Shown: positions 2,511 through 48,833 of the stretch, one piece after another
Layout: each line of letters begins with the position of its first letter
Position numbering within the stretch: the first letter of the stretch is position 1
DNA from: Candidatus Omnitrophota bacterium
GTDB lineage: Bacteria > Omnitrophota > Gorgyraeia > B26-G9
Direction of reading: 5' to 3'
DNA length: 64,000 bases
NCBI GenBank assembly: GCA_043814605.1
Contig: JBDRJV010000037.1
Coordinates: 31,899-95,898, forward strand
Position numbers and translations under genes: made by a program
The notes under the pieces: generated by a model
What the model was told of the DNA's origin: nothing
What the model saw: the letters and a program-made list of their open reading frames with translations, nothing else
Database searches by the model: none

Positions 2511-3572
2511 ATGCTGCAAAGTATATATTTTCAATTAAATAATTTTATGGCTTTTTACAATCTTTTTTCAGTACGGCAAGCAGCCAGTTTTTTACAAAAT
2601 TTGCCGTTATCAATTAATTTATTGAGAACGGCAAAGTGTAATTTAAATTGCCGGATTTGCTCAGCTAAAGACATGCTTAATATAGGGAATGAATTAACCA
2701 CGGGTGAAATCATCAGCTTTATTGAAAAAAATGCAGAGTATAAACCGATTTTTTTTATCGGAGGAGGAGAACCTTTTATCCGTAAGGATATCCTGGAATT
2801 TGCCAGAGTGTTCAGCCGGAATAAATTAAAATACGGGATTGTTACTAATGGGACTTTGCTTAATCCCGAAATTATGGGTGAATTGTTCAATAATAAATTA
2901 AATGTGCTGATTTTTTCTTTACATGGCAATCAGCTGCAGCATGATAAGGTGACCGGTAAAAGTGGGGCATATAGTTTAATTAGTAATAATATAAAATTTG
3001 CTGCGAAAAATAAGAAAAGTACTAAAATAATTTTAAATTTTGTAATAAATGAGGAGAATTATTTACAGCTTGAGCAAATTATTAAATTTGGAAAAAATCA
3101 AGGAGTAAATCAAGTAAGAATTGAGCATTTAATTTTTTTAACAAAAAATGAATACAAGCAGCATTTAGAAGTTTGCCGGAAACTTTTTCCAAAGAACAAT
3201 ACAAATCTTGTAATTTTTAAAAAGGATATTAATAATTTGGAAATTGGTGATTTTTTAAAAAAAGAGATACCTCGCTTAAAAAAGAAATACAAAAATTTTG
3301 TTTTATTTAAACCGCATTTGAGTCAAGCTGAAATTGAATCATGGTATTGTGAGAATTTTCAATTAAATCGTAAGTGTTTTTTTGTGCAGCATTCAGTTTT
3401 TGTAAACCCAAACGGAGATATTGTTCCCTGTCAGTTTTTAGGAAATTATAAACTAGGGAATATCAAGGAGGTTGAGTTAGTTGATGCCTGGCGAAATAAA
3501 GCCAGTCAAAATATTAAAAAAACTTTAAAGCAAAAGATTTTACCCGGATGTAACCGATGCTGTAAATTATGA
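2511..3572 (+). CDS. Radical SAM / SPASM-domain protein
   Basis: CNLNCRIC is a CxxxCxxC radical-SAM motif near the N-terminus. The C-terminus has a cysteine cluster (CQFLGN...PGCNRCC) typical of SPASM/twitch auxiliary clusters. The start abuts the upstream stop (TAAATG). Confidence 0.8.
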   Translation: MLQSIYFQLNNFMAFYNLFSVRQAASFLQNLPLSINLLRTAKCNLNCRICSAKDMLNIGNELTTGEIISFIEKNAEYKPIFFIGGGEPFIRKDILEFARVFSRNKLKYGIVTNGTLLNPEIMGELFNNKLNVLIFSLHGNQLQHDKVTGKSGAYSLISNNIKFAAKNKKSTKIILNFVINEENYLQLEQIIKFGKNQGVNQVRIEHLIFLTKNEYKQHLEVCRKLFPKNNTNLVIFKKDINNLEIGDFLKKEIPRLKKKYKNFVLFKPHLSQAEIESWYCENFQLNRKCFFVQHSVFVNPNGDIVPCQFLGNYKLGNIKEVELVDAWRNKASQNIKKTLKQKILPGCNRCCKL

Positions 3573-4117
3573 AAATTTTGTTAAATAAAAGTTATAACTT
3601 ATTAAGGGATATATATTTAGAAAGCATTAATTTTACGGATAAAACTAAGCTTTTAGATATCGGTTGCGGTTTGAGGGGTAATTTTCTAAAGCTGCCTAAA
3701 TTTGTGTATACAGGTGTTGATGCTAATAAACATATTATTGCTAAATTGAGAAAGAAATCAGATGGGCTATATGAGTGTATGGATGCGAATGATTTAAAAT
3801 TTGAAAATAACTTTTTTGATTACATAATATCAACGAGTTTTTTCCATCATTGCTCAAAGAATAATATTCGTGCGATAGTAGAGCAAATAAAAAAGATTTT
3901 AAAAGATTCGGGAAAAATAATTATTGCAGATGGGGTATATCCGGATTCTAAAATTAATATTTTAGGATATTTAATTAGATTTTTTGACCGGGGTAGATTC
4001 GTGAGAAGAAAAGATGAATTCAGAGAGTTATTTGAGAATTTTTTTATTGTTAAAAAAGAAGTTTATTTTGTGAATAAGTTTTTTGCATATTACGTATTAG
4101 TAATGGAAAAAAAATAA
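3569..4117 (+). CDS. Class I SAM-dependent methyltransferase
   Basis: LLDIGCGLRGNF matches Rossmann motif I of SAM methyltransferases. It overlaps the upstream gene by 4 nt (ATGA). Confidence 0.65.
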   Translation: MKILLNKSYNLLRDIYLESINFTDKTKLLDIGCGLRGNFLKLPKFVYTGVDANKHIIAKLRKKSDGLYECMDANDLKFENNFFDYIISTSFFHHCSKNNIRAIVEQIKKILKDSGKIIIADGVYPDSKINILGYLIRFFDRGRFVRRKDEFRELFENFFIVKKEVYFVNKFFAYYVLVMEKK

Positions 4118-4118
4118 G

Positions 4119-5555
4119 ATGATAAATCAGTTAAAACAAAAAAAAAATAATTCAGAACTTTTAGTGTTTACAGTAATTTTAGCCTGTGGATTTTTTATGC
4201 GGCTTTTTTCTTTAATAAATTCAGATAATTTCCATGGTATTGCGGCAGGTAAAATTTTTGAAGCTCGTTATTTGCTCAAACATCCAGAGGAGCTTTGGGC
4301 TTGGATTGTCCCGGCCCATGGGCCGGTGCATTTATACTTGATCGCAATTTTATTTAAAATATTTGGTGATTATATAATTATTGCAAGATTAATAAGTTTA
4401 TTTTCCGGAGTGGCCTTATTTTTTCCCTATTATAAACTGATCAAACTTTCCTTCAGCAGAGATATTGCGCTTTTTAGTTGTTTTATCGCAGCTTTTTTTT
4501 ACTTACATGTAATTTATAGTGTGATTTCGACTGCGGAATCAATTTTTATTTTATTTTTATTTTCGGGGTTGTATTTTTATTTTAAATATTTCCAAAGTCA
4601 AAGAGTTTTTGAGTTGATAATTTCTGCGCTTTGTGTAGGAGTTTCAAGTATGTGTCGATTTGAAGGAGGGTTATACATAGTTTTATTAAGTGCTTTTTTA
4701 ATAAAAAAACCAAAAATAATGTTGATTTTTTTAATAAGTTCCTGTATGTTGCCTTGGGTTTGGATAGTTTTTAATTTTATTTTGTACGGCGATTTTTTCT
4801 ATTTTTTAACATCAAGCGATAATATCGTAAAGTATGAATTTGATAACCTAAAAGTTTACGGAACTCAATATACAATAACCGAGAGAATTTTATATTGGCC
4901 AATGGTATTAAAAGGGTATTTTGGAAATATATTATTTATTTTCGGTATAATCGGGCTTTGGTCTAATTTTCGCAACGCTAAAACTAAACTGCTGTTAGTT
5001 CTATTCCTGAGTATTTTAGGTTTTTTTATTTTTAAAACTTTTTATAAAGAACTGGCAATGCAGCCGCGTTATGGATTAAGTCTCGGATGCTTATTCATCC
5101 CGTTTATTGCAGATGCCTTATTAACTGGCTATACAAGAGTAAAAAAAATTTCCAAAAATTTAATACTGGCTCGGGATCAATTTAAAATGCTATTTTTTTT
5201 AATTCTTTTTTATATAGTAATAAGAGGATCATATTTAAGTTTAGTGCAATTACCGCATACTCCTCTCTGGGTAGAGAAAACAGCTAAATTTCTTGCTGCT
5301 AATGTAGACGAAAATAAAAATGAATTAGTGTATATTGATTCTGATGATGATAATTTTATAGAGCCGATTAAAATTTTATCGGGACTGGATGTGGACAGTT
5401 TTGTGGATATGCAGGCAGAAGGAACACATAAAGAATTGATTGAATCAGCTTCTTTAAAAAATATTAAATATCGTATTTTAATTTCAAAAACCAGGAATCT
5501 TAATTTAAAACAAATTTTTCAAGCTTCTGATTGTAAAATTTATAAAATAAAGTAA
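4119..5555 (+). CDS. Polytopic membrane protein, GT-C-like glycosyltransferase (paralog A)
   Basis: 478 aa with about 10 TM helices and a C-terminal soluble domain. The N-terminal motif FHGIAAGKIF is shared with the next gene (DTFHGIAAGRTL), so the two form a tandem paralog pair. Confidence 0.5.
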   Translation: MINQLKQKKNNSELLVFTVILACGFFMRLFSLINSDNFHGIAAGKIFEARYLLKHPEELWAWIVPAHGPVHLYLIAILFKIFGDYIIIARLISLFSGVALFFPYYKLIKLSFSRDIALFSCFIAAFFYLHVIYSVISTAESIFILFLFSGLYFYFKYFQSQRVFELIISALCVGVSSMCRFEGGLYIVLLSAFLIKKPKIMLIFLISSCMLPWVWIVFNFILYGDFFYFLTSSDNIVKYEFDNLKVYGTQYTITERILYWPMVLKGYFGNILFIFGIIGLWSNFRNAKTKLLLVLFLSILGFFIFKTFYKELAMQPRYGLSLGCLFIPFIADALLTGYTRVKKISKNLILARDQFKMLFFLILFYIVIRGSYLSLVQLPHTPLWVEKTAKFLAANVDENKNELVYIDSDDDNFIEPIKILSGLDVDSFVDMQAEGTHKELIESASLKNIKYRILISKTRNLNLKQIFQASDCKIYKIK

Positions 5556-5560
5556 ATTAT

Positions 5561-7057
5561 ATGTCAAATAAAATCACTAAAAGCAGCATCATTTTAATCC
5601 TGATAATAACCGCGATCTTTATAGGTTTAAGATTATTTTTATTACTGGACACGGATACTTTTCATGGTATTGCCGCAGGAAGAACTTTGCTTGCAGAATT
5701 AATATTAAGGAACGGTTTTTATTCAAAGTTATGCTTTGTTCCCGTACATCCGCCAATACATACAGTTATGCTAGTTGCGGGATTGTTTATCTGGAATAAT
5801 CCGATAATTTTACCTGGGTTAGTAAGTTTATTTTTCGGGACGCTTACTTGCCTTCCTTTTTATTACTATAACAAAAGTGTTTTTGATGAAAAAGTGGCTG
5901 TATTTTCGCTAGCAGCAATTAGTTTGTATTCTGATCATATTGCTTATAGTATTATTGGGACTTCAGAAACAATTTTTCATTTTTTTCTTTTCAGTAGTTT
6001 AGTTTTTGCTTTATTTTTTAAAAAAAACAAGAATATGCGGTATTTTTATCTGAGTGCAATAATGATTTCAATAGCTAGTTTATGCCGGTATGAAGGAATA
6101 ATATTTATCCCTTTTTTTTCTGTTTTTTTAACTAAGAAAATAAAAAATATTATTCTCTTTCTAATTGTTTCTTTAATTTTACCGGGTATATGGATGTGCG
6201 TAAATTTTTATTTTACCGGAAATTTTATATATTTTTTAAATACTAATGATATTACCGTACCTTTACAATTTAATTGGATGCGGTTGCAGGGGCTAGATAT
6301 AAACGTTACTTATAAAATTCTATTTTGGCCGCGAGTTTTAATCAATACAATAGGAGTATTTTTTCTTTTTTTTGGACTTGGGGGAGTTATCTTTTGTTTA
6401 AAGAGAGGAGAAAAATTATTTCCGGCAGGATTAGTCATATTTATATTATGTTTATTTGTATTAAGAACTTATCAAGAAAAACTCTATTTGCAGACTCGCT
6501 ACGGCATAACCATTGGTTTATTATTAATTCCTTTTGCAATTTACTTTTTTCAGGTTACTGTTAAAAAGATTAATCGTAACTTGCCGGACTGGTTAGTTTT
6601 ATTTTTACTTTTGACCCTGATTCCTGCCTGGGGAAAGACACTTTCCCAGGAAAGCTTATTTCTCCCGGATACAGTTAAAAATATAAGCAGTTTTTTAGGT
6701 AAAGAAGTTAAAGAAAATGAAAATATTTTTATAACTTCAGAACAAAATGAAAATTATCGTGAAGTGATAAAATTAAGAAGCCGTCTTAATCCTAAACAAT
6801 TTATACTAATTCCGTATCTTGAGCCGTATGAAAACAAATTTATTATAAAACTGGAAACATTTTTTCAATATTTAGAAAAAGAGAATATTAAGTTTTTTGT
6901 CTATTCTCCAGAGGGAGAGTTAGGAAATATTCTGAAATTTGAGGGAAAAGGGGAAAAGTTTAATATGAATGGGTTCTGGTTCAAGCTTATTTATAAAAAT
7001 AGATTATATCATATTTATAAGGTAGACCCTTTAAAAGAGGGGGTAGAAGATGTTTAA
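5561..7057 (+). CDS. Polytopic membrane protein, GT-C-like glycosyltransferase (paralog B)
   Basis: 498 aa with the same TM topology and the shared N-terminal FHGIAAG motif as 4119..5555. Confidence 0.5.
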   Translation: MSNKITKSSIILILIITAIFIGLRLFLLLDTDTFHGIAAGRTLLAELILRNGFYSKLCFVPVHPPIHTVMLVAGLFIWNNPIILPGLVSLFFGTLTCLPFYYYNKSVFDEKVAVFSLAAISLYSDHIAYSIIGTSETIFHFFLFSSLVFALFFKKNKNMRYFYLSAIMISIASLCRYEGIIFIPFFSVFLTKKIKNIILFLIVSLILPGIWMCVNFYFTGNFIYFLNTNDITVPLQFNWMRLQGLDINVTYKILFWPRVLINTIGVFFLFFGLGGVIFCLKRGEKLFPAGLVIFILCLFVLRTYQEKLYLQTRYGITIGLLLIPFAIYFFQVTVKKINRNLPDWLVLFLLLTLIPAWGKTLSQESLFLPDTVKNISSFLGKEVKENENIFITSEQNENYREVIKLRSRLNPKQFILIPYLEPYENKFIIKLETFFQYLEKENIKFFVYSPEGELGNILKFEGKGEKFNMNGFWFKLIYKNRLYHIYKVDPLKEGVEDV

Positions 7058-8282
7058 ATTGTGCCGAGGCCGAATAATATTTTCAATGGATATATTCGGA
7101 GATTTAATTAAAAGTTTTTTTAGTAAAAAAAATAATGGAGAGTTAACTATTAAAAAATTTGAAGATGATTTTGCTCAATATATTGGCAGTAAACATGCAG
7201 TTGCGGTTGCTTCGGGTAAGATGGCATTGTATTTAACGTTGAAGGCATTAGGCGCAAAGGAGGGGGATCAGATTATTATTCCTGCCTATACAGTTAGCGA
7301 AGTTATTGATGTAATTATTCTTTGTAAATTAATACCGGTTTTTGTGGATATTAATCTTAAAGACGCGAATATTGATGTATCCTTGATTGAAAAAAGAATT
7401 ACTCCGAATACTAAATTTATCTTAATGGTACATATGTTTGGATGCCCCTGTGACATTGATGAAATAATTGCAATAAGCAAAAAATATAATCTTAAAGTTA
7501 TTGAAGATGGAGCTCAGAGCTGTGGGGCTGAATATAAAGGAAAAAAAATAGGAAGTTTTGGTGATATTGGGTATTTTAGCTTTGGCATCATGAAAAATTT
7601 AAATACATTAGGCGGGGGAATGATTGTAGCGCAAAATTCTGATCGAATAAATTTTATTAGAAAACAGATAAATAAGTTTTCTGAAAATTTGATGGGGCAA
7701 CTTTTTAAAAAAACGGTTTTAGTTTTTTTTGTATCTATACTAACTACGCCGGTTATATTCTCATTTGTAGTATATCCGTTACTATTTATTATCGAAGAGA
7801 ACAGAAGAGAAAAAATATTTAAGAGTTTATTTAAAGCTAGACCTGTAACAGCACAGTGTATGGAAAAGCTAAAAGTAAAATTTTCTCCTTATCAAGCGGC
7901 GATTGGCATAGCCGGCCTTAAAAAAATTGAACAGATAAATCAAAAGCGGATAAATAATGCTAAAGTTCTAAATCAGGCTCTTAATAATATCGATGGTGTT
8001 TCTTTGATTAAAGAATCAAGTGATTCAAAAAACATTTATTTAAACTATGTGATCCGCATTAATAACAGACAAAAACTAATTAATCGTATGTTTAATAAAG
8101 GAATTGATGTAAGTGCGGGGTTTATTGAATGCTGTCCGGATTTAGCCAGATTTGAGCTTTACCAGTGCGATTGTCCTAGAAGCAGGATTTGGGAAAAAGA
8201 AAATCTATATTTACCGGTTTATCATCCGCTGAAAAGAGAAGTAATGATAAAAATTTCGAAATTAATAAAGGAAGCATTGTGA
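7050..8282 (+). CDS. DegT/DnrJ/EryC1/StrS-family PLP-dependent sugar aminotransferase (ArnB-like), with unusual hydrophobic insertion
   Basis: Family motifs are present: EDGAQSCGAEYKGKKIGSFGDIGYFSF...K...GGGMIV and the FSPYQAAIGIAGL region. A ~45 aa insertion (KTVLVFFVSILTTPVIFSFVVYPLLFII) is absent from the two other DegT paralogs in this window. Confidence 0.8.
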   Translation: MFKLCRGRIIFSMDIFGDLIKSFFSKKNNGELTIKKFEDDFAQYIGSKHAVAVASGKMALYLTLKALGAKEGDQIIIPAYTVSEVIDVIILCKLIPVFVDINLKDANIDVSLIEKRITPNTKFILMVHMFGCPCDIDEIIAISKKYNLKVIEDGAQSCGAEYKGKKIGSFGDIGYFSFGIMKNLNTLGGGMIVAQNSDRINFIRKQINKFSENLMGQLFKKTVLVFFVSILTTPVIFSFVVYPLLFIIEENRREKIFKSLFKARPVTAQCMEKLKVKFSPYQAAIGIAGLKKIEQINQKRINNAKVLNQALNNIDGVSLIKESSDSKNIYLNYVIRINNRQKLINRMFNKGIDVSAGFIECCPDLARFELYQCDCPRSRIWEKENLYLPVYHPLKREVMIKISKLIKEAL

Positions 8283-8296
8283 AAAATAATCATAGC

Positions 8297-9676
8297 ATGG
8301 AGGGTGGTTTGAATATAATTAAGAATGCCTTACGAGGAGTCGGCGGGTTATTTTTATTAGCTTTTTTTGTGCGGCTTGGTTTTTTAATGAGTTCTGATAA
8401 TTTTTACGGATTTGGGCCGATGTTAAATATTATTACCGCATTAAAGGCTTTTAATTATTTTTCTTTTTTTGAAAATATTTATTTCTGCCCTTTACCCTTT
8501 TATTTATATTCACTGGTTTTTTCAGTATGGATGGGAACGGAACAAATTATTTGCGCACAGTTTTTAAGTTTATTATTCGGCAGTTTAAGCATACCAATTT
8601 TTTATTTATTTGTAAGAAAAAATTTCAATAAACTAATCGCTTTTTATGCCGCATTAATTTTGTGTTTTTATCCGGCCCATATCATAATGAGTATTATTAC
8701 AAGCGCGGATAGTATAGGTTTTTTTCTTTTACTTGTTTGTTTAAATCTAATTTTAAATAAAAATTATTTTTACGCATCAATAATATTAGCAATAAGTTGC
8801 GGATTTACCTATTTAGCATGGGTTTTTGTGCTGATTTTAAATTTATTTATGTTTATCCAATCGGATAAAAAAAATATAAAAAAAATAATAAAATTATTTT
8901 TTTTCAGTATAATTAGTTGTTCTGTTCCTGCAGCTATCATAGTTTTAATCAAGATTAAATATTGCTCGCAAGGGCTTTTTTACAGGAATTTTTATTTAGC
9001 AGACTCATTTATGCGCTACATAATAAATTATGGCAATACGGTTAAAATCGCAATCAGGGCTTTGTTAATGCAGCCGGTTTCGGGATTTTTCCTGGTTAGT
9101 TTAATCGGAGTTTTTTTCTTTTTAAAACAAAAAAGGATAAAGTGTTATGATTTAATTTTTTTATTTGGACTCACATTAATATTGATTTGTTTAGGGATAT
9201 TTAGAGATGAAATTTGCATTTTAGGTCAGGGTGTAAACTTTTTATCAATCATGTGCATACCTTTTTTTGTTTTTGCCGTTACATCCATATTGCAAAAATT
9301 TAAAATAAAAAAGATAATCTTTGTTTTAATTTGCATTTTTTGTTTGATTTTGTTTTTAGTCAGTACTTGTTTAAAACCGAAATTACCGGAAAAAGTAAAA
9401 GAATTGAGTGCCTGGCTAAAAGAAAATATTGATGAGAAAACCAAAATTTATATAAACAAGGATGAAACAGGGTATTATAGTTCAATTATCATGCTTAGCG
9501 GTCTGCCGCAGGGTAATTTTAAATATTATAATAGCTTTGATGATTTTTCTGGCCAGGTTGATGCTGAGGATAATTATCTTATTCTTAGTCTGGAGCAATA
9601 TAGTCAAGCTAAAAATGTTCCGGGTGAGAATTTAATAGTTTTAGAAGGTTATTCTGTATATAAATTAGATAACTAG
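8297..9676 (+). CDS. Polytopic membrane protein, probable GT-C-like glycosyltransferase
   Basis: The ORF track starts at 8189, overlapping the upstream gene by 94 nt. The first in-frame ATG after the upstream stop (8282) is at 8297 (MEGGLNII). The protein is multi-TM throughout with a soluble C-terminal tail. Confidence 0.45.
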   Translation: MEGGLNIIKNALRGVGGLFLLAFFVRLGFLMSSDNFYGFGPMLNIITALKAFNYFSFFENIYFCPLPFYLYSLVFSVWMGTEQIICAQFLSLLFGSLSIPIFYLFVRKNFNKLIAFYAALILCFYPAHIIMSIITSADSIGFFLLLVCLNLILNKNYFYASIILAISCGFTYLAWVFVLILNLFMFIQSDKKNIKKIIKLFFFSIISCSVPAAIIVLIKIKYCSQGLFYRNFYLADSFMRYIINYGNTVKIAIRALLMQPVSGFFLVSLIGVFFFLKQKRIKCYDLIFLFGLTLILICLGIFRDEICILGQGVNFLSIMCIPFFVFAVTSILQKFKIKKIIFVLICIFCLILFLVSTCLKPKLPEKVKELSAWLKENIDEKTKIYINKDETGYYSSIIMLSGLPQGNFKYYNSFDDFSGQVDAEDNYLILSLEQYSQAKNVPGENLIVLEGYSVYKLDN

Positions 9677-9677: not shown

Positions 9678-10781
9678 TTGTTAATAAAAATGAAAATAAT
9701 TTTTATCACGCGAGAATCTAAAGAAATGCCAGCAGTGCGAGTCCGCAGCTATGGGTTTGCAAAATTTTTAGAAAAAGCAGGGTATGAAACTATAATTTTC
9801 TCTTATGCTGATAATTTAATGGCTGGAAGCGGAAAAAAAGAGGATAAGTTAAGTATTTTTGACAAAATTAAATATAATTTTAAAACTCTAAAATATCTTT
9901 CTTCTCAGAAAGCAATTTTAGTTTTACAAAGATGTAATTACCATTCTTTTGCGCCCTTACTGCTGGCATTATTGAACCGGAATAAGTTAATTTTCGACCT
10001 GGATGATTGGGAAGCGCGTGAAGATATTCATTATTATTTTAATAAAATCCCTAATTCAAAAGCAATAATTCTCTTATCGCTAATTGCGAGAAAGAGTAAA
10101 TTATGTATCGGCGCAAGCGATTTTTTATGTGAGTTTCTTTTGAATTATAATAAAAATATTTTAAAAATACCAACAGGTGTGGATGTGGAAAATTTTAAGC
10201 CGGATAAAAAGGATAATAATTTACAGCATATAGTATTGTCTTGGATTGGGACTATTTACCGCAAGGATAATCTGGAAAATTTAAAATTTCTTATAGATTG
10301 TTTTCAGGAGCTGTTTGCAGAATTTAATAATATCAGGCTTGAAATCGCCGGAGAGGGTATTTATGCAGATAAATTAATCGCGCTAATTAAAAATATTAAT
10401 AATCAAGATATCATTTTTAAAAACTGGATTAGTCCTGCGAAAATGCCGGATTATCTAAAGAATGTTGATATTGGCGTTATGCCTTTAACCCAAAATTCAA
10501 AATTTAATAAAGCGAAAAGCCCCACCCGCTTGTTTGAATATATGGCGATGGAAAAGGCAGTGGTGGCTAGTACTGTGGGAGAAGCACAAAAGATTATTAA
10601 AAACGGGGAAAATGGATTTTTAGCATCGACAAAAAGTGAGTTTGTTGCGTGCCTAAAAAAATTAATAGAAAATGAGCAGTTAAGGTTAACAATTGGCAGG
10701 TTCGCACGTAAAACAGTAATTGCAGATTATAATTTAAATAAAATTCCGGAAAAATTATTAGAATATATAGGGAAGATATAA
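9678..10781 (+). CDS. GT-B glycosyltransferase, family 4 (glycosyl transferase group 1)
   Basis: The C-terminal KSPTRLFEYMAMEKAVVASTVGEAQKIIKNGENGFL matches the GT4 E-x7-E nucleotide-sugar binding region. Confidence 0.75.
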   Translation: MLIKMKIIFITRESKEMPAVRVRSYGFAKFLEKAGYETIIFSYADNLMAGSGKKEDKLSIFDKIKYNFKTLKYLSSQKAILVLQRCNYHSFAPLLLALLNRNKLIFDLDDWEAREDIHYYFNKIPNSKAIILLSLIARKSKLCIGASDFLCEFLLNYNKNILKIPTGVDVENFKPDKKDNNLQHIVLSWIGTIYRKDNLENLKFLIDCFQELFAEFNNIRLEIAGEGIYADKLIALIKNINNQDIIFKNWISPAKMPDYLKNVDIGVMPLTQNSKFNKAKSPTRLFEYMAMEKAVVASTVGEAQKIIKNGENGFLASTKSEFVACLKKLIENEQLRLTIGRFARKTVIADYNLNKIPEKLLEYIGKI

Positions 10782-10786
10782 AAAAA

Positions 10787-15675: not shown

Positions 15676-15814
15676 GAGATAATTAATCCGGTGAAGAGGA
15701 TTATTGCTAAACCCAATATAATATTTATTAAAAAATTAGGGACGGTTAAGTTTTAATTAGTTAAGATTTTTATATTTGAGTACAGTATTCCATAAAAGTT
15801 TAGAAAGAAAAGTT

Positions 15815-18063: not shown

Positions 18064-18131
18064 TAGATAAAATTAATTTTTAAAGCATAGATTTATGAAA
18101 AAGTATTTAAAAATTTGAAAGGATAAAACCA

Positions 18132-18968: not shown

Positions 18969-18987
18969 TTTTAACTGGGGTGGTCCA

Positions 18988-20805: not shown

Positions 20806-20817
20806 ACACTTTTCATT

Positions 20818-41591: not shown

Positions 41592-41972
41592 TAAAAAAAT
41601 AATATCGTATAAAGCGATACTTATTAATTTTACCGCTAAAATTTTTCTACTATTGGTTAGAGGACTAATTATATTACTGTTGTTTCCAAAGAGAAAGATA
41701 GTATTGTAGATATTACTGGTTTATAAAATGATTCGAAAAAAATAACTAATCGATTAAGCTTAATAAAATGTAATTTTAATTATTTTAAAGGACTAACTAT
41801 TAGTTGATTGATAAGGTTGTTACGAATACCGAGACTAATATAATAAGCGATTTAAATTAATCGCCATGTCCTGTAGAAGGTATAATTAGTTTACGTAATT
41901 ATAATAATGTTGTGGTGAATTTTCAAGAAAATATTTTTCAATTAATATATACAATTCGGCGAGAGGATCTAG

Positions 41973-43166
41973 ATGTCTATTTCGAGAAGAAATTTTTTAA
42001 AAAATAGTTTAAAATTTTGTGCAGGAGTTGGATTATGCATCTTAACAAAAAGTTTCTGGGATAATTTTGAAAATACAGAAAGGATAGACAATTTTTTATT
42101 AAAAGAAGCAAAATATTATCGTAAAGGAAGTAACAATACTGTGCAATGCTTATTATGTGCCAGAAATTGTGTAATTAAGGATAAAAAAAGAGGGTTTTGC
42201 CAAGCCAGGATAAATAGTAAAGGTAAATTATTTAGTATGGTATACGGAAGTGTGATTATAACCCATTCAAAGGATAGACCGTTTAGGTCTTTGATTTATT
42301 TTGCTAATGATATTGAAGGGCTATGTATTGGTACAGCTGGATGTAATATGAGATGCAAGTTTTGTCTTGCCTCAGGAATTAGTCAGGTAAAACCTGAAGA
42401 TATTAAGATTAATAATAGATTTCCTTTTACTATGAATAAGAAACAAAATAAGACTCAGATTCTTCCAGATCAATTGATAAGCATGGCCAAAAAAAACAAT
42501 GTAAAATTAATTCATTTTAATCTTAATGAACCTACAATATATTATGAGTATATGCTAGATGTGGCAAAAATAGCGGTAAAAAATGGAATTTTTACAATGC
42601 TATGGAGCAATGCATATATAAATAGGGACCCTTTGCTTGAGTTAGCTCCTTATTTAGGCGGAGCGAGCATTGGATTGAAAGCTTTTAACAATGATATCTA
42701 TAAAAAGTTTTGCAGCGGAGAATTAAGTCCGGTTTTAGATACTTTAAAGTTGCTGAAAAAACAAAAAATTCCTTTTGAGATAATTTATCCAGTCATTCCG
42801 ACTGTTAATGATGATACTCAACAAATTAAAGATATGTGTTTTTGGATTAAAGATAAATTGGGTACGGAAGTGCCATTGCATTTTTATCGTTTCCTGCCTA
42901 GGTATAAATTAGTTAATTATCCTCCAACCCCTATCTCAACCTTGGAATCCATACAGAGTTTGGCTAAAAATACTGGTCTAAAATATGTATATGTTTTCTA
43001 TATGGGAGATTATCCTATCCCGGGCATGGAAGAAAAAATTTATTGTCCAAATTGTAAGAAATTAGTTTTATTACGTAAAAATTTAAATAATCTTGTAATA
43101 AATAATACGAAAAATTCCTGTTGTAAATTTTGCGGTGAAAAATTACTTTTTTTTATTTTTAAATAA
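41973..43166 (+). CDS. AmmeMemoRadiSam-system-type / PflA-like radical SAM enzyme with N-terminal twin-arginine-like leader
   Basis: ATG with GAGAGGA 7 nt upstream. The N-terminus SRRNFLKNSLKFCAGVGLCIL matches the Tat consensus. CLLCARNCVIKDKKRGFCQARINSKGKLFSMVYG followed by GTAGCNMRCKFCLASGIS matches the characteristic N-terminal half of AmmeMemoRadiSam/PFL-activase-type rSAMs. Confidence 0.7.
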   Translation: MSISRRNFLKNSLKFCAGVGLCILTKSFWDNFENTERIDNFLLKEAKYYRKGSNNTVQCLLCARNCVIKDKKRGFCQARINSKGKLFSMVYGSVIITHSKDRPFRSLIYFANDIEGLCIGTAGCNMRCKFCLASGISQVKPEDIKINNRFPFTMNKKQNKTQILPDQLISMAKKNNVKLIHFNLNEPTIYYEYMLDVAKIAVKNGIFTMLWSNAYINRDPLLELAPYLGGASIGLKAFNNDIYKKFCSGELSPVLDTLKLLKKQKIPFEIIYPVIPTVNDDTQQIKDMCFWIKDKLGTEVPLHFYRFLPRYKLVNYPPTPISTLESIQSLAKNTGLKYVYVFYMGDYPIPGMEEKIYCPNCKKLVLLRKNLNNLVINNTKNSCCKFCGEKLLFFIFK

Positions 43167-43234
43167 TCTAAATTATGGGAAAAATTTATTACTTAATACG
43201 ATTAAATAAAAAATTGAAAATTTATTAAAAATAT

Positions 43235-44644
43235 ATGAGAGTTCAATTTATTTTTCCGCCTTATACGCATAAAAAATTTGAAGAGGACATTTCAATTGTC
43301 AGCCGTAGATTTGGTATTTTCCCGCCGTTAGGGCTTGCATTTGCGGCGGCTATTTTAGAGGCACAGGGACATTGTGTGGATATTATTGATGCGCGGGCTT
43401 CGAATCTATCAAAAGAGCAGACACTGCAAAGAATAAAATATTTTCAGCCTAAATTACTGGGATTTATGCTCACGTTTTATATGTTTCATGATACTTTAGT
43501 CTGGATTAAATTTTTTAAAGAAAAAACTAATATCCCGATTATTGTCGGTAATGTATTAATGGAGTTTTTCCCGCAGGACGTGATGGCGTATCCTGAGATT
43601 GATTATGGAATTATTGGCTCCGCGCAAAAAAATTTACCGCTACTCATAGAATTTTTGGAAAATAATAAAAATATCGAAAACATTAGTGGGCTTTGTTATC
43701 GTAAAGATGGACAAGTAATTATTAATAAACCCAAAGAATTATTTGAGGATTTTCAGACTTTGCCTTTTCCGGCAAGGCATTTATTGCCTAATCATAAGTA
43801 CCATGCGGTAATGTCAAAACGTAAAAATCTTACGATAATGGTTACAACCCGTGGATGTGCCGCTAGCTGTAATTTCTGTCATATTAAAGATATTAAATAT
43901 TCAGCTAGGTCAGCCCAGATGGTTGTGGATGAAATGCAAGAGTGTTATGAAAAATTTAATGTGCGTGAAATTGAAATATTTGATCCTACTTTCAATATGG
44001 ATAAACGCAGAGTGATGGATATTTGCCAAGGCATAGTTGATAGAAAACTGGATATTGATTGGGCTTGCCGTGCGAGAATTGATTGCATGAACCCAGAAAT
44101 GTTGAAAATTATGTGTCAGGCTGGGTGCAAAAGAATATTATACGGGATTGAATCAGGCGATGAAAATATTCTTAAAAAAATTAAGAAAGGAATAAATTTA
44201 TCACAAATTAGAGATACGATTAAAGCTACCCAAGATTTAGGAATAAAGGCATTAGGATTTTTTCTTTTAGGGAGTCCCGGAGATAGTTTAAAAACTATTA
44301 ATAAAACAGTTAAATTTGCTAAAGAATTAAAGCTTGATTATGCGCAATTTCATAAAACAATAGCAAAACCTGGAACCGAATTGTACGACCAAGTTAAGAA
44401 TTATACAGGACGCGATTTATGGAGAGAATATATTCTAGGTAAATATCCAGAATCAAGATTACCTACGCCTTGGACAGATTTATCAGCTCAAACCATAGAG
44501 CAGTGCACTTATCAAGCGTATCGAAAATTCTATTTTAGAATTGGTTACCTCTGGCAAACTCTTAGAGGAATAAAATCATTTCATGAATTTAAGAGATACC
44601 TAGCTTCTTTTTTTGGTTTAATTTTTGAAAAACGGGATTATTAA
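43235..44644 (+). CDS. B12-binding-domain radical SAM protein
   Basis: N-terminal B12-binding-like domain, then VTTRGCAASCNFCHI (CxxxCxxC). Confidence 0.75.
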   Translation: MRVQFIFPPYTHKKFEEDISIVSRRFGIFPPLGLAFAAAILEAQGHCVDIIDARASNLSKEQTLQRIKYFQPKLLGFMLTFYMFHDTLVWIKFFKEKTNIPIIVGNVLMEFFPQDVMAYPEIDYGIIGSAQKNLPLLIEFLENNKNIENISGLCYRKDGQVIINKPKELFEDFQTLPFPARHLLPNHKYHAVMSKRKNLTIMVTTRGCAASCNFCHIKDIKYSARSAQMVVDEMQECYEKFNVREIEIFDPTFNMDKRRVMDICQGIVDRKLDIDWACRARIDCMNPEMLKIMCQAGCKRILYGIESGDENILKKIKKGINLSQIRDTIKATQDLGIKALGFFLLGSPGDSLKTINKTVKFAKELKLDYAQFHKTIAKPGTELYDQVKNYTGRDLWREYILGKYPESRLPTPWTDLSAQTIEQCTYQAYRKFYFRIGYLWQTLRGIKSFHEFKRYLASFFGLIFEKRDY

Positions 44645-44659
44645 AAGGAATTAATTTAA

Positions 44660-46144
44660 ATGAAAATAATGTTTTATTATTCTGCCTTTGAAAATTTAGG
44701 CATTGAATATCTTTCTGCAGTTTTAAAACAATCCGGACATAAAACCCGCCTTCTCTTTGATCCGGGTTTATTTAACGACCCTTTTTTGAGTATTAAACCA
44801 TTGGCTAAAATTTTCAACTGGGAGAAAAAATTATTACGTGAATTTACCCAATACAATCCGGGTTTAGTAGCCTTTTCTGTGACGAGTTCAACTTATTTAG
44901 CCGCATTGGATTTTTCAAAAAAACTTAAAAAAATAACGAAAATTAAAATAGTTTTTGGCGGGATCCATGCCAGTGCAGTGCCAGAGGTTGTTATAAAGGA
45001 TGATGCAGTTGATTACTTAATTGTGGGTGAAGCAGAAGAAGCTTTATTGGAACTAGTCGAGGCATTAGAAAACAATAAACCGATTAATAGCATTAAAAAT
45101 CTGTGGTATAAAGATAGGTATAAAATCTTTAATAATTCTTTAAGAGACTATATTACTGATCTTGATAAACTTCCATTTCCAGATAAGGATCTTTATTATG
45201 ATCAAATTCCTGAATATAGAAGCGGGTATACAATAATTACCCGCCGGGGTTGTCCGAATCATTGTGCTTATTGCCATAATAGTTTATGGCATAAATTATA
45301 TAAAGATTATGACAGTGAAATTGTCCGGTACCGAGGGGTAGATAATGTAATTACAGAGTTAAAACAGGCAAAAAAAAAGTATAATTTTAAAAGGGTTCGC
45401 ATAAACGATGAAATTTTTACTCTTAATGAAGGCTGGTTAAAGGAATTCTCTGCAATGTATAAGAAATATATTAATCGGCCAATGTTCTGTTTTGTTAGTC
45501 CTCATACTGTAAACGAAAAAACTGTAGAATGTTTAAAAGCTATGAATTGTTATCAGGTTTGTATGGGTGTGCAAACTCTAAATGAAGAAAAGAATAGAAT
45601 CTTGTTAAACCGCAATCAAACTAATAATCAGGTAAAACAGGCAATTAAATTATTTCGTGAATATAAAATTCGTTGTGTTGTGGATAATATAATTGGTTTA
45701 CCTGGTGAAAAGGAAGAAGATTTATTGCAGATGGCAAGGTTTTATAATAATAACCGTCCCGATAGGATTTGTATTTTTTGGCTGATTTATTTCCCTGGGA
45801 CAAAAATTATAGATGCAGGATTAGAAAAAGAGGTGCTTAACCAAAAAATGCTAGAAGAAATTAAAACAAATCCGCAAGCTACAGCGAATACTATCTATAG
45901 TCTGTTACATGAAAGGGGCAAGAATAAGTATTATATTTTGCTTCTGCTGATACATTTTTTACCTAAAAATATTATTGATTTTATCATAAAGAAAAGATTA
46001 TTTGAATTATTTTCATTATTAAACCCCTCGTTGATTGAAATCCCTTTTACGATGATTGCTCGGGACAGATTAGATATAGTCAGACGCAGATATTATTCAC
46101 GTTATATCAAATATGGAATTAAAAAATTATTTTTAGTTGGATAA
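44660..46144 (+). CDS. B12-binding-domain radical SAM protein (paralog subfamily 'LGIEYLSA')
   Basis: LGIEYLSAVLKQSGH, ITRRGCPNHCAYCHN, C-terminal IHFLPKNIIDFIIKKRLF. Confidence 0.8.
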   Translation: MKIMFYYSAFENLGIEYLSAVLKQSGHKTRLLFDPGLFNDPFLSIKPLAKIFNWEKKLLREFTQYNPGLVAFSVTSSTYLAALDFSKKLKKITKIKIVFGGIHASAVPEVVIKDDAVDYLIVGEAEEALLELVEALENNKPINSIKNLWYKDRYKIFNNSLRDYITDLDKLPFPDKDLYYDQIPEYRSGYTIITRRGCPNHCAYCHNSLWHKLYKDYDSEIVRYRGVDNVITELKQAKKKYNFKRVRINDEIFTLNEGWLKEFSAMYKKYINRPMFCFVSPHTVNEKTVECLKAMNCYQVCMGVQTLNEEKNRILLNRNQTNNQVKQAIKLFREYKIRCVVDNIIGLPGEKEEDLLQMARFYNNNRPDRICIFWLIYFPGTKIIDAGLEKEVLNQKMLEEIKTNPQATANTIYSLLHERGKNKYYILLLLIHFLPKNIIDFIIKKRLFELFSLLNPSLIEIPFTMIARDRLDIVRRRYYSRYIKYGIKKLFLVG

Positions 46145-46177
46145 ATATTAAATTGATCAAAGTATCAGGATAAAATT

Positions 46178-47167
46178 ATGAATTCAGGATTATTGAATAT
46201 ATTAAAAATTGTTAGAATTTTTTTTAAAGTAAAATTTTTTAGAAATAAAATTCCTATTTTTGTGGGCTGGGATTTAACTTACAGGTGTAACTTTAATTGT
46301 CAATATTGTAAAATTCCGAAACTTGATACCGATCGAGAATTGTCAACGGATAAGGTGTTAAAAATGATAGATCAGTTTAGTAAACTTGGTGTTTGCCGTA
46401 TACATTTTGGTGGGGGAGAGGTTCTATTACGAGATGATCTTGATCAAATTTTAAAATTTTGTAAAAAAAGAAATATTTATACTGTTATTCTCACAAATGG
46501 AGCTTTATTTGAAGCTAAGATACCTGTTATAAAGAAAGCAAATCTAATAAAAGTAAGTTTTGATGGTCCTGCTAAAATTCATGATAATTTGCGTCATAAG
46601 GGGTCTTATAGTCAGATTGTTAAAGTATTAGTTTTAGCAAAAAAACTTAAAATAAAAGTAACGTTAAGTGCAACTTTAACTAGAAAAAATTATGAATATA
46701 TTGATTATATTTTAGATTTTGCTAAAGAAAATAGGACCCCAGTAAAATTTCAGTTAGTTAATGAGTTCTTGTCAGGATCTAAAGACATTGCTAATCTTAA
46801 GCTTTCCCGAGAGCAGCAGCAGAAGGCAATGGGAAAATTATTAAAGGAAAAAAAGAGGAGCGGGTATATAATAAATTCTAAAAATGCACTGGAGTATATG
46901 CGTGATTACCCAAATGTAAAAAATTTATGTTGTACGGCAGGAAAGCTTTATGTGCGTGTTTCTGTTGATGGAAGGCTATATCCGTGCGAAATACTAAAAG
47001 ATGAGTTTTTAAAAAATACATCTTTTGAAAAAGATATCGGTAAATCATTCAAAGTATTAAAAAATGTTAATTGTAAATATTGTTTATGTACTACAACATT
47101 AGAATTAAATCAATTATTTTCTTTAAATTTAAATGCAATTTTTAATGGGCTAAAGTATTTTAGTTAA
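46178..47167 (+). CDS. Radical SAM / SPASM-domain protein
   Basis: DLTYRCNFNCQYCK (CxxxCxxC). The C-terminus has CCTAGKLY...CE...CKYCLC, consistent with SPASM. Confidence 0.8.
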   Translation: MNSGLLNILKIVRIFFKVKFFRNKIPIFVGWDLTYRCNFNCQYCKIPKLDTDRELSTDKVLKMIDQFSKLGVCRIHFGGGEVLLRDDLDQILKFCKKRNIYTVILTNGALFEAKIPVIKKANLIKVSFDGPAKIHDNLRHKGSYSQIVKVLVLAKKLKIKVTLSATLTRKNYEYIDYILDFAKENRTPVKFQLVNEFLSGSKDIANLKLSREQQQKAMGKLLKEKKRSGYIINSKNALEYMRDYPNVKNLCCTAGKLYVRVSVDGRLYPCEILKDEFLKNTSFEKDIGKSFKVLKNVNCKYCLCTTTLELNQLFSLNLNAIFNGLKYFS

Positions 47168-47387
47168 AATTTAATATGGCTAAGAACTAATTCTATATTA
47201 AGAATTATAGAAGAACTTTTCCGTGTTATTAATAAAAAAATGGTTCGATTGTGGAAACAAAGTTTAACGTTTTTTTTCGACAATATTGCTTTTGTATTTT
47301 TAGAATTGATAAACGAATCTTCAATTAGAAATAAGAACTGTAGTTTAAAAGTAATTTTTTTATTACCAACACTATGGAGGATGAAGT

Positions 47388-48833
47388 TTGAAAATATTAC
47401 TTATAGTTGAGGAAACTTTTTATATGGATAGACTGGGCATTTTATATTTAAGTTATCCTCTAAAGCGTTTCAACTATGATGTCAAACTTGCTGTTTTTGC
47501 TAAAGAGGGGTTTCCAGGAATAGAACAAATAATGCAAGAATATTCTCCGGATATTGTTGGTTATAGTATGATGACTGGTGAGTATAATACGCTTAATAGA
47601 GTAAATAAGTATTTAAAAAATAAATTTAATTTTTTATCAGTTTTTGGAGGTCCTCACCCGACATTTTATCCGGATTTAATTAAAGAATCCCATATTGACG
47701 CAATTTGTGTAGGAGAGGGAGATATTGCTTTTGCGGAGTTTTGTCGGAGAGTTAAAGAGAGCGATAAATATTGGCAAACTCCAGGGTTTTATGTAAAGCA
47801 TAATGGTAATATTTTTAGTAATCCACTATTATCTTTAGTTAAAGATTTAGACCAATTATCTTTTCCAGATAGAAAATTAATGTATGAGGCCCAACCTGAT
47901 GTCTATGAAGATGGAACCAAAGTTTTTATATCTTCTCGTGGATGCCCTTATAGTTGTTCATATTGTTTTAATAAAAAATATAATGATATTTATAAAAATA
48001 AGTCAATTGTAGTTCGTCATCGTTCGCCTAATAATGTAATTCAGGAAATTGATGCTACTAAGCAGGAATACGGATTAAGACATGTATTTTTTTTAGATGA
48101 TATTTTTACGATAAAACCTAAGGGATGGGTAGAAGAGTTTTCAACACTATATAAGCAAAAGATTGATCTGCCGTTTTCTTGTCACGTACGTGCAAATCTG
48201 GTAAGCGATAGTGAGATAAAACTATTAAAAAATGCCGGCTTAAATTCAGTTTTAATCGGAATAGAATGTGGGGATGAGAGAGTATCAAATGAAGTGTTAA
48301 ATAGAAATTTATCGAATAAAATAATTTTTCAAGCAATACAAATTTTAAAAAAACATGATATTAAAATATGGACACATAATTTATTGGGGATCCCAGTTAA
48401 GGATAGTTTCGAAGTAGGAATTAAAACGCTTGATATGAATTTAAAAATAAGACCAGTTTATGCCCATTCAGGCTTACTTTTTCCTTATCCTGGGACTGAA
48501 ATTCGGAAGCAATCATTACGAAATAATTTTTTGAATGAAAATAGTGTTTTTTTTGAAACTCATCAAAAATATTCAGTTTTTAATTTTAATAAAAAAGAAA
48601 AATCTCAGATTGAAAGATTGCATTATTTATTTGGATTAACAGTTCGTTTTCCTTTTTTACGTAAAATAATTAGATTGCTTGTAAAAATTCCTTTATCAGG
48701 ATTTTATTTTATGATTTTTTATGTTTGGTATGGATACAATCTTAAATTTAAATTTTTTCCCATGCAGTCTTGGACAAAAGAAATAAAAAAATATGTCAAA
48801 TTAGGGGAAAAGATACTAAAAAAACATAATTAA
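47388..48833 (+). CDS. B12-binding-domain radical SAM protein
   Basis: N-terminal B12-binding-like domain, then ISSRGCPYSCSYCFN (CxxxCxxC). Confidence 0.75.
   Translation: MKILLIVEETFYMDRLGILYLSYPLKRFNYDVKLAVFAKEGFPGIEQIMQEYSPDIVGYSMMTGEYNTLNRVNKYLKNKFNFLSVFGGPHPTFYPDLIKESHIDAICVGEGDIAFAEFCRRVKESDKYWQTPGFYVKHNGNIFSNPLLSLVKDLDQLSFPDRKLMYEAQPDVYEDGTKVFISSRGCPYSCSYCFNKKYNDIYKNKSIVVRHRSPNNVIQEIDATKQEYGLRHVFFLDDIFTIKPKGWVEEFSTLYKQKIDLPFSCHVRANLVSDSEIKLLKNAGLNSVLIGIECGDERVSNEVLNRNLSNKIIFQAIQILKKHDIKIWTHNLLGIPVKDSFEVGIKTLDMNLKIRPVYAHSGLLFPYPGTEIRKQSLRNNFLNENSVFFETHQKYSVFNFNKKEKSQIERLHYLFGLTVRFPFLRKIIRLLVKIPLSGFYFMIFYVWYGYNLKFKFFPMQSWTKEIKKYVKLGEKILKKHN

Follow-up and report, generated by a model that had tools for sequence, protein, structure and literature searches.

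A 64,000-nucleotide stretch of DNA from a Candidatus Omnitrophota bacterium (the window, taken from contig JBDRJV010000037.1) contains what we rate as an envelope glycosylation locus with an unprecedented battery of radical S-adenosylmethionine (radical-SAM) tailoring enzymes. This island is one rich version of a phylum-wide cassette, rather than a one-off or an assembly artefact. Domain identities, folds, paralogue structure, gene-order conservation and a position beside the division and cell-wall (dcw) cluster are all direct observations. The reading they favour, which we hold at somewhat better than even confidence, is that the cassette produces an envelope glycoconjugate, with a polyprenyl-phosphate-linked amino sugar being remodelled by radical chemistry and then transferred by GT-C glycosyltransferases.

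The CxxxCxxC motif occurs in exactly 20 of 37 consecutive + strand open reading frames (ORFs) between positions 2511 and 48833, and in none of the 14 other large ORFs of the window. The initial inspection of the letters and translations, referred to here as the sequence-only reading, had counted 20 radical-SAM coding sequences, and hidden Markov model searches bore this out, all 20 exceeding the gathering cutoff of PF04055 (41-86 bits). The Pfam scan covered 50 ORFs, which were all the large ORFs but g50, with gathering cutoffs of 29.5 bits for PF04055, 32.1 for PF02310, 27 for PF23545, 26.1 for PF13231 and 31.7 for PF04932. Chance cannot explain such a density of radical-SAM genes.

The division of these enzymes into six zinc-ribbon, nine B12-binding, four SPASM and one AmmeMemoRadiSam-type protein stands for every class except the SPASM group. 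Zn_ribbon_HMPTM (PF23545, 46-59 bits) is found in g21, g22, g23, g24, g26 and g29. The B12-binding domain PF02310 (38-80 bits) is found in g10, g19, g25, g30, g31, g34, g36, g37 and g39, in each case N-terminal to the radical-SAM core, the arrangement by which class B enzymes are recognised, and these nine are predicted to be cobalamin-dependent. Pfam SPASM (PF13186) matches g03 and g28, and not g20 or g38; all four have four C-terminal cysteines spaced C-x18-C-x29..45-C-x2-C, and the seven-cysteine SPASM motif, including CX2CX5CX3C, is absent from them. They would therefore be better described as Twitch-like, with a one-cluster arrangement. The genes of the locus, with their evidence, are as follows.

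837..2510, +, g02: GT-C (PMT_2); PF13231 33 bits, ~12 hydrophobic segments
2511..3572, +, g03: radical SAM with SPASM/Twitch domain; PF04055 66, PF13186 47 bits; best NCBIfam match NirJ1, 111 bits, far under cutoff
3569..4117, +, g04: class I SAM methyltransferase; Methyltransf_11/25
4119..5555, +, g05: GT-C (PMT_2); PF13231 56 bits
5561..7057, +, g06: GT-C (PMT_2); PF13231 35 bits; 35% identity to g05
7050..8282, +, g07: DegT aminotransferase with hydrophobic insertion of ~55 amino acids (aa); PF01041 249 bits in two stretches; pyridoxal phosphate (PLP) lysine kept
8189..9676, +, g08: multi-pass membrane protein, GT-C-like, start codon uncertain; BLASTP to g05/g06 E 1e-12, no Pfam match
9678..10781, +, g09: GT4 glycosyltransferase; Glyco_trans_1_4, Glycos_transf_1
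10787..12253, +, g10: B12-binding radical SAM; PF02310 38, PF04055 61 bits; HpnJ 152 bits vs cutoff 578
12250..13143, +, g11: GT2 glycosyltransferase; PF00535 102 bits; homologues 5' of DUF362 in L005, L010
13140..14252, +, g12: DUF362 protein with twin-arginine signal; PF04015 93 bits; N-terminus MKKFTRREFLQKG; homologues 59-61% identical in L005, L010
14245..14826, +, g13: secreted DUF362 partner, no family match; homologues 3' of DUF362 in L005, L010
14833..15675, +, g14: CE4 polysaccharide deacetylase with DUF3473; PF01522 76, PF11959 45 bits; XrtA-system deacetylase 118 bits, under cutoff
15776..17362, +, g15: GT-C (PMT_2); PF13231 33.5 bits
17362..18063, +, g16: WbqC-like; PF08889 254 bits; homologues in L003, L006, L008, L020, L084
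18132..18968, +, g17: secreted, no family match, always 5' of g18; signal-peptide-like N-terminus; beside g18 homologues in L001/L007, L006, L008, L020
18949..20805, +, g18: predicted YfhO-like GT-C; homologue names and PF09586, AlphaFold (AF2) fold
20818..22284, +, g19: B12-binding radical SAM (clade g19/g30/g31/g37); PF02310 64, PF04055 77 bits; hydrophobic helix 413-431
22287..23339, +, g20: radical SAM, Twitch-like four-cysteine C-terminus; PF04055 75 bits; best NCBIfam match MoaA, under cutoff
23388..24746, +, g21: zinc-ribbon radical SAM, predicted GDGT-MAS fold; PF23545, PF04055; 7TOL E 3.5e-40; AF2 model
24753..26135, +, g22: zinc-ribbon radical SAM, tandem paralogue; PF23545, PF04055; 55-60% identity to g21, g23, g24
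26145..27512, +, g23: zinc-ribbon radical SAM, tandem paralogue; PF23545, PF04055; placed by tree
27509..28855, +, g24: zinc-ribbon radical SAM, tandem paralogue; PF23545, PF04055; placed by tree
28860..30458, +, g25: B12-binding radical SAM; PF02310, PF04055; best NCBIfam match BchE, 165 bits, under cutoff
30448..31851, +, g26: zinc-ribbon radical SAM, ancient paralogue type; clade with L006, L007, L086 orthologues
31866..32933, +, g27: DegT aminotransferase; PF01041 308 bits; PLP lysine kept
32930..33895, +, g28: Twitch-type radical SAM, BtrN-like; PF04055 83, PF13186 46 bits; BtrN 4M7S E 3e-10; cysteines 226/244/289/292
33882..35222, +, g29: zinc-ribbon radical SAM, ancient paralogue type; PF23545, PF04055; orthologue clade
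35228..36715, +, g30: B12-binding radical SAM; orthologues 50-64% identical in L001, L003, L006, L008, L020
36739..38199, +, g31: B12-binding radical SAM; PF02310, PF04055; 3' end overlaps GT2 g32
38154..38918, +, g32: GT2, ArnC/Dpm1-like catalytic domain; PF00535 77 bits; best NCBIfam match ArnC, 75 vs 529 bits
38925..40139, +, g33: DegT, PseC/ArnB-like; PF01041 419 bits; PseC 369, ArnB 360 bits, both under cutoff
40167..41591, +, g34: B12-binding radical SAM; BchE 183, HpnJ 177 bits, both under cutoff
41973..43166, +, g35: AmmeMemoRadiSam-type radical SAM, Tat-like signal; TIGR04337 231 bits; 381-bp gap upstream
43235..44644, +, g36: B12-binding radical SAM, HpnJ/AprD4-like; HpnJ 193 bits, under cutoff; PDB AprD4 6FD2 E 9.5e-24
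44660..46144, +, g37: B12-binding radical SAM; 41% identity to g30
46178..47167, +, g38: radical SAM, Twitch-like C-terminus; PF04055 86 bits; PTO1314 family 119 bits, under cutoff; homologues in L008, L022
47388..48833, +, g39: B12-binding radical SAM; PF02310, PF04055
49120..50097, +, g40: GT2; Glyco_tranf_2_3
50091..51755, +, g41: Wzy_C membrane protein (O-antigen ligase or polymerase type); PF04932 42 bits; ~13 hydrophobic segments
51758..53491, +, g42: membrane protein, 11 segments, C-terminal soluble domain; no Pfam, NCBIfam or PDB match
53697..54290, +, g43: class I SAM methyltransferase, last gene before mraZ; Methyltransf_23/11

The wider distribution of this arrangement was traced by scanning a genome set, one per GTDB species, with the zinc-ribbon profile. 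Apart from a few found in metagenome-assembled genomes (MAGs) labelled uncultured bacterium or Planctomycetales/Planctomycetia, all full-length relatives (30-50% identity) belonged to MAGs labelled Omnitrophota; Tes-like proteins of archaea and other bacteria followed at 23-30% identity. Syntenic cassettes are present in at least 15 other Omnitrophota or Planctomycetes-Verrucomicrobia-Chlamydiae (PVC) MAGs, hence the island is not unique to this genome. The related loci (numbered with the prefix L) were examined as pieces of at most 21 kb with 6-12 motif-bearing ORFs each, and GCA_043826565.1 has at least 15 radical-SAM genes in ~22 kb (L006 plus L083). The recurring order is a g17-type secreted protein, the YfhO-like protein (g18), a B12 enzyme, a radical-SAM enzyme, a variable number of zinc-ribbon enzymes, a B12 enzyme (g25) and a zinc-ribbon enzyme, continuing with DegT, Twitch, zinc-ribbon, B12, B12, GT2 and DegT genes. 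Within it, the pairing of DegT with a Twitch/SPASM enzyme (g27-g28), usually followed by a zinc-ribbon gene, recurs in L001, L005-L010, L012-L015 and L083-L086, and the triad of GT2, DUF362 and g13-type genes (g11-g13) extends to the more distant loci L005 and L010. A search of the literature on Omnitrophota/Omnitrophica and radical-SAM-rich loci found no description of the cassette.

Such conservation bears directly on whether the island could be an assembly chimera, or a chance pile-up of radical-SAM paralogues with no shared pathway. The sequence does derive from a MAG, and g35 is apparently unrelated to its surroundings. However, the identical gene order in independently assembled MAGs from NCBI, JGI, ENA and Logan, together with the uniform composition of 25-35% GC and the single gene direction, excludes a chimera and leaves any artefact a negligible probability. 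The case of g35 is separate: this gene probably lies outside the conserved cassette, because related loci contain no homologue and a 381-bp gap precedes it. It passes the AmmeMemoRadiSam model TIGR04337 (231 vs 220 bits), the sole NCBIfam cutoff reached among the 20 radical-SAM enzymes, although Pfam detected neither an AMMECR1 nor a Memo partner gene among the 50 window ORFs scanned. Both g35 (MSISRRNFLK) and g12 (MKKFTRREFLQKG) open with twin-arginine-type signals, and a radical-SAM enzyme exported by the twin-arginine translocation (Tat) route would be odd, because SAM is cytoplasmic.

The genomic position also appears to be conserved. In the ENA scaffold L086, the cassette is followed by two GT2 genes and a Wzy_C gene directly upstream of mraZ, as in the window, and the order GT2, Wzy_C, mraZ, rsmH, ftsL, ftsI is common to window positions 49120-56273 and L086 positions 16096-20960. 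Because the two share this order, the cassette would occupy a conserved chromosomal site directly upstream of the division and cell-wall cluster. The sequence-only reading had placed the island at 2511-48833, bounds that do enclose all 20 radical-SAM genes; however, the coherent locus is wider, from ~837 to ~54290, extending left to the GT-C gene g02 and right through GT2 g40, Wzy_C g41, g42 and methyltransferase g43, to end directly 5' of mraZ-rsmH-ftsL-ftsI-murE-murF. GC content falls to 24.6-26.2% across 50000-54000, the Wzy_C and g42 genes, vs 27-33% elsewhere in the island; low GC is frequent for Wzy-type genes of O-antigen loci. Between murF and mraY (start ~63160), the dcw cluster is interrupted by g50 and g51 (60954-63130), which encode a secreted protein of 234 aa (60954-61658) and a protein of 482 aa, respectively. 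Neither has an NCBIfam match, and g51 also has no Pfam match, g50 having been scanned with NCBIfam alone. Four secreted or membrane-anchored proteins without a family match in the libraries run, g01 (54-833), g13, g17 and g50, may be acceptors or periplasmic partners.

Relatives of the cassette show further variation. In a second clade of loci the cassette also includes a MiaB-type radical-SAM gene (UPF0004 with Radical_SAM, ~440-480 aa), present in L009, L010, L012-L015, L045 and L085 (e.g. L085 16470-17816) and absent from the window. Upstream of the cassette in L045, a UbiA-family ORF (5746-6627; motif NDIVDLKEDKQH) resembles polyprenyl-phosphate phosphoribosyltransferases, and AsnB-like amidotransferases stand beside WbqC and DegT genes in L003 (18025-19950) and L020 (137-2026). 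In L014, an ORF of 918-925 aa (9989-12745) contains two complete zinc-ribbon radical-SAM units, with CxxxCxxC at 90 and 560, and is either a tandem fusion or the product of a lost stop codon.

The compactness of the island is equally informative. As the sequence-only reading had stated, its genes are co-directional and tightly coupled: all large ORFs of this AT-rich window (25-35% GC) lie on the + strand, and the island is 96.9% coding, with just seven gaps of at least 40 bp. A promoter and terminator scan was uninformative in such AT-rich DNA (94 sites vs 103 expected). Rfam and tRNA scans of the window returned no matches, and because the Rfam scan was empty there is no cobalamin or SAM riboswitch. 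These features bear on the proposal that the enzymes modify a ribosomal peptide that is subsequently glycosylated, in a proteusin-like cluster for a ribosomally synthesised and post-translationally modified peptide (RiPP) with B12 C-methyltransferases and epimerases. Enzymes of the B12-binding and SPASM/Twitch kinds are typical of RiPP maturation, and several of those here have weak NCBIfam matches to RiPP maturases. However, the coding density and few gaps count against a hidden precursor gene, no small ORF is conserved in 21 related loci, and the lone small ORF on the + strand (47240-47410) has no conserved counterpart there, in agreement with the earlier claim that a precursor peptide is lacking. 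Nor did Pfam detect a RiPP recognition element (RRE)/PqqD, peptidase, YcaO or transporter domain in the window, and in the Twitch enzymes the CxxxCxxC motif already starts at residues 27-43, too early for an RRE to fit in front of it. A RiPP cluster is hence a very improbable explanation.

The most numerous conserved class, the zinc-ribbon enzymes, has GDGT-MAS (MJ0619), the Tes enzyme that makes archaeal tetraether lipids, as its best solved relative (7TOL, E 3.5e-40, full length). The AF2 model of g21 (pLDDT 83.5) aligns to 7TOL/7TOM with a TMq of 0.72-0.74 over ~475 columns, the next-best structure falling below 0.4. As described in PMC9433317, GDGT-MAS combines its radical-SAM cluster with a rubredoxin site (C9X2C12X20C33X2H36), an auxiliary cluster near the N-terminus bound by C73, C77 and C80, a C-terminal cluster in which one site is open or labile, and a lipid tunnel that is long and hydrophobic. 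The rubredoxin-like CX2CX20CX2H is retained, with C15, C18, C39 and H42 invariant in the zinc-ribbon alignment, and the Omnitrophota enzymes also have three invariant C-terminal cysteines, which could hold an auxiliary cluster with one open site. In contrast, where 7TOL has the N-terminal [4Fe-4S] motif (C73X3C77X2C80 plus a histidine), the alignment shows a gap. CX3CX2C occurs once in every Omnitrophota member, as against twice, 25 residues apart, in 17 of the 26 matches examined from archaea and other bacteria. In a library of 1.84 billion proteins, 620 representatives reached E <= 1e-30; of the 136 motif-bearing sequences among the best 150, 135 contain the radical-SAM motif only, and one has both. 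Identity to GDGT-MAS is 22%, the NCBIfam Tes model (NF045702) gives 123-159 bits vs a cutoff of 450, and the co-best NCBIfam match, TrsS, is itself uncharacterised. Because the N-terminal motif has been lost and the Tes scores lie below the cutoff, these proteins appear to be a distinct branch of the GDGT-MAS fold, large and uncharacterised, and not to be Tes. Within the branch, g21-g24 are mutually 55-60% identical and represent, in a neighbour-joining tree, a lineage-specific four-fold expansion of one ancestral gene, with g26 and g29 falling into separate, older orthologue groups common to other genomes.

This relationship keeps alive the idea that the radical-SAM enzymes act on lipid tails, coupling, cyclising, bridging or methylating isoprenoid or fatty chains, with the sugar genes merely making and attaching a head group. 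The full-length match to GDGT-MAS and the retained rubredoxin motif are consistent with such chemistry, as are the hydrophobic helices of the enzymes. Archaeal tetraether tailoring uses the same three classes: Tes, B12 enzymes (Grs, Hgm) and enzymes of the Twitch/SPASM type (Hbs, Gms). Sugar head groups borne by lipids are remodelled by Cds and HpnJ. Yet neither the window nor the related loci contain glycerolipid, ether-lipid, fatty-acid or isoprenoid synthesis or saturation genes, and the [Fe4S4]N of GDGT-MAS is missing from every Omnitrophota member. Here, four to six zinc-ribbon paralogues sit within a sugar-modification locus, rather than beside lipid genes, and their invariable partners are sugar aminotransferases and glycosyltransferases, one relative apparently joining a B12 radical-SAM enzyme to a GT2. 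We consider lipid-tail chemistry unlikely, although it is the most serious of the rival explanations.

The partner genes give the amino-sugar reading its substance. Pfam matches were found for the DegT, GT2/GT4, CE4 and Wzy_C partners named at the outset, and the non-radical-SAM complement comprises three DegT, three GT2, one GT4, a CE4 with DUF3473, a WbqC, a DUF362, a Wzy_C and two SAM methyltransferases. All three DegT proteins keep the catalytic PLP lysine, and the ~55-residue hydrophobic insertion of the g07 type is conserved in homologues from 10 related loci. GT2 g32, with its match to PF00535, is a candidate polyprenyl-phosphate sugar synthase. The order of a B12 enzyme followed by a GT2 (g31-g32), which overlap in the window, is kept in relatives, and GCA_024231215.1 encodes a 753-aa product (L084 19999-20936; JAAEQR010000072.1 ~378.5 kb) with B12-binding, Radical_SAM and Glycos_transf_2 domains, possibly a Rosetta-stone fusion of the two, the first 312 residues of which are an open B12 radical-SAM frame. 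The seven GT-C proteins originally claimed are reduced slightly: PMT_2 was confirmed in g02, g05, g06 and g15, g08 is paralogous to g05 and g06 (E 1e-12), and g18 qualifies by its predicted fold, but g42 has no Pfam, NCBIfam or PDB match and no profile match to g18. One homologue of g18 is named YfhO family by its source and four have a precomputed PF09586, which a rescan found in 3 of 15 aligned members; all ten best PDB matches of its AF2 model (pLDDT 78) are GT-C proteins (e.g. PglB, ALG12, AftD, ArnT), so that g18 is predicted to be a YfhO-like glycosyltransferase with a GT-C fold.

The B12 and Twitch enzymes likewise point towards sugars. The B12 enzymes form a group of g19/g30/g31/g37 (plus g39), with g10, g25, g34 and g36 more distant, and g25 is the best-conserved gene of the cassette (81%, 68% and 65% identity to its L006, L003 and L001 orthologues). 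HpnJ is the top NCBIfam match for g10, g19, g30, g36 and g39 (99-193 vs 578 bits). Among solved structures, g36 (E 9.5e-24) and g30 (E 1.5e-9) both match best to AprD4 (6FD2), the apramycin diol dehydratase acting on an amino sugar; the NCBIfam AprD4 model gives 24-100 bits vs 500. The best solved match of g28 is BtrN (4M7S, E 3e-10, aligned over the first ~120 residues only), a radical-SAM aminocyclitol dehydrogenase of butirosin/2-deoxystreptamine biosynthesis; the g28 family has 85 homologous clusters in a large protein database, almost all the named ones from Omnitrophota or PVC. PDB searches with g25 and g38 found nothing specific. Since the closest structures of g28, g36 and g30 belong to aminoglycoside pathways, a diffusible aminoglycoside- or aminocyclitol-like product, a secreted pseudo-oligosaccharide rather than an envelope polymer, has to be weighed, and gentamicin-type pathways use B12 radical-SAM C-methyltransferases (GenK, GenD1). 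However, scans of the window found no 2-deoxy-scyllo-inosose or inositol-phosphate synthase, exporter or resistance gene, the five to seven GT-C proteins and Wzy_C suggest extracytoplasmic assembly on lipid-linked donors, and phylum-wide conservation beside the dcw cluster would be unusual for an antibiotic cluster. Such a product is accordingly improbable.

Tailoring of a membrane-bound, lipid-linked amino sugar is favoured because of the ArnC/ArnB-like pair, the GT-C set, the BtrN and AprD4 matches, the hydrophobic segments and the possible GT2 fusion. The sequence-only reading had proposed an undescribed pathway tailoring a lipid-linked glycan or glycolipid, and the conserved partners, the fusion and the hydrophobic segments lend this support; it is strengthened further because the cassette always accompanies DegT, ArnC-like GT2, WbqC and YfhO-like GT-C genes. 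Membrane association is suggested by the strongly hydrophobic helix in all six zinc-ribbon enzymes and in B12 enzymes g19, g30, g31, g37 and g39, by the g07 insertion, and by the fold of GDGT-MAS, a lipid-tunnel enzyme. Firstly, DegT enzymes would aminate a nucleotide sugar, g32 (perhaps g11 and g40 as well) would load it onto polyprenyl phosphate, and the CE4 enzyme g14 would remove its N-acetyl group. Secondly, at the cytoplasmic membrane face, the Twitch enzymes (g28 with g27; g03, g20 and g38) would oxidise sugar hydroxyls to ketones that are transaminated further, replacing the NAD-dependent dehydratases and oxidases that the locus lacks. This idea arises because three DegT genes are present without any NAD-dependent dehydratase, Pfam having matched no short-chain dehydrogenase/reductase or NAD-dependent sugar dehydratase or oxidase anywhere in the window, and because BtrN-like g28 is beside DegT g27. 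Thirdly, C-methylation, or rearrangement, deoxygenation or contraction of the ring, would fall to the nine cobalamin-dependent enzymes. Fourthly, the lipid-anchored substrate would undergo C-C bond formation, or alkylation at an unactivated carbon, by the six enzymes of the GDGT-MAS fold. Finally, the finished polyprenyl-phosphate-linked units would be flipped, and five to seven GT-C proteins (PMT_2/ArnT-like and YfhO-like) with the Wzy_C ligase or polymerase would transfer them to a periplasmic acceptor.

A bolder version can be offered only tentatively, and would more readily be expected to fail than to hold. In it, the zinc-ribbon enzymes would constitute a functionally new branch of the GDGT-MAS fold and, with the B12 and Twitch enzymes, carry out sp3 C-C bonding and repeated C-alkylation on a polyprenyl-phosphate amino sugar, or join sugar to lipid. 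The product would be an envelope glycolipid or glycan of a new, phylum-specific and hyper-modified class, possibly carbocyclic or cross-linked, and the scale of this radical carbohydrate chemistry would be matched by no characterised pathway.

Several observations weigh against amino-sugar remodelling. The most numerous conserved class has a single characterised relative, GDGT-MAS, whose substrates are lipid tails, and apart from g35 no radical-SAM enzyme here reaches a curated-family cutoff. The matches to aminoglycoside enzymes may reflect sampling, because few B12 radical-SAM structures are in the PDB. The GCA_024231215.1 fusion rests on a Pfam listing, its gene running off the examined piece, and g32 is without the C-terminal membrane hairpin of ArnC and GtrB. 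The window contains no initiating phosphoglycosyltransferase, no nucleotide-sugar synthesis genes and no recognisable flippase (Wzx, GtrA, ArnE/F), an unlisted flippase gene being precluded because the coding density leaves no room for one. The identities of all substrates, the sequence of the steps and the acceptor are deductions.

The nineteen uncharacterised radical-SAM enzymes in one operon-like locus provide a testable set for new radical chemistry on carbohydrates or lipid-linked sugars, and the presence of nine cobalamin-dependent enzymes implies that B12 is strongly required. Tes homologues in bacterial MAGs are currently read as potential for tetraether lipids (brGDGTs, the branched form of glycerol dialkyl glycerol tetraethers); because of the sugar context and the failure of two defining Tes features, the Omnitrophota matches should not be counted as evidence of tetraethers. 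Omnitrophota are ultra-small bacteria whose presumed way of life is to attach to other cells or prey on them, and a widespread, dcw-adjacent cassette with varying paralogue numbers is as expected for a major, diversifying surface structure.

Comparison with known systems places the cassette between several of them. Gtr, CsbB-YfhO and Arn systems work by a GT2 attaching a sugar to polyprenyl phosphate and a GT-C protein transferring it outside the cytoplasm. The ArnC-like g32, the ArnB/PseC-like DegT, the CE4 enzyme and the PMT_2/ArnT-family and YfhO-like GT-C proteins resemble this arrangement. However, no equivalog cutoff of the Arn system is reached (ArnB 360 vs 631 bits; ArnC 75 vs 529; ArnD E=0.0028) and ArnA is absent, and relative to three-component systems there is no recognisable flippase and g32 has no membrane hairpin. 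To our knowledge, no GT2/flippase/GT-C or Arn system includes radical-SAM enzymes, as against 20 here. The PF04932 match of g41 recalls Wzy-dependent O-antigen and capsule loci, although the window has neither an initiating phosphoglycosyltransferase nor Wzx. For BtrN, the four C-terminal cysteines of g28 suit a single auxiliary cluster, and its DegT neighbour fits the oxidise-then-transaminate logic of the BtrN pathway; the differences are that the locus has no 2-deoxy-scyllo-inosose synthase, Pfam detecting no dehydroquinate (DHQ)-synthase-like protein in the window for a 2-deoxystreptamine pathway, and that the g28 family is essentially confined to Omnitrophota/PVC MAGs. The hopanoid (HpnH, HpnJ, HpnP, HpnR) and archaeal (Grs, Hbs/Gms, Hgm/Gmm, Cds) sets likewise deploy B12, Twitch/SPASM and Tes-type enzymes on membrane-bound substrates, and HpnJ acts after a glycosyltransferase and a deacetylase, contracting a lipid-bound glucosamine. 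Yet those sets have 1-4 radical-SAM genes, vs 15-20 in these cassettes, which contain no hopanoid or tetraether genes. AprD4, GenK and GenD1 are, like the nine enzymes here, radical-SAM proteins with B12 domains, and act on amino sugars; the distinction lies in the setting, which in Omnitrophota is one of envelope assembly rather than an antibiotic cluster.

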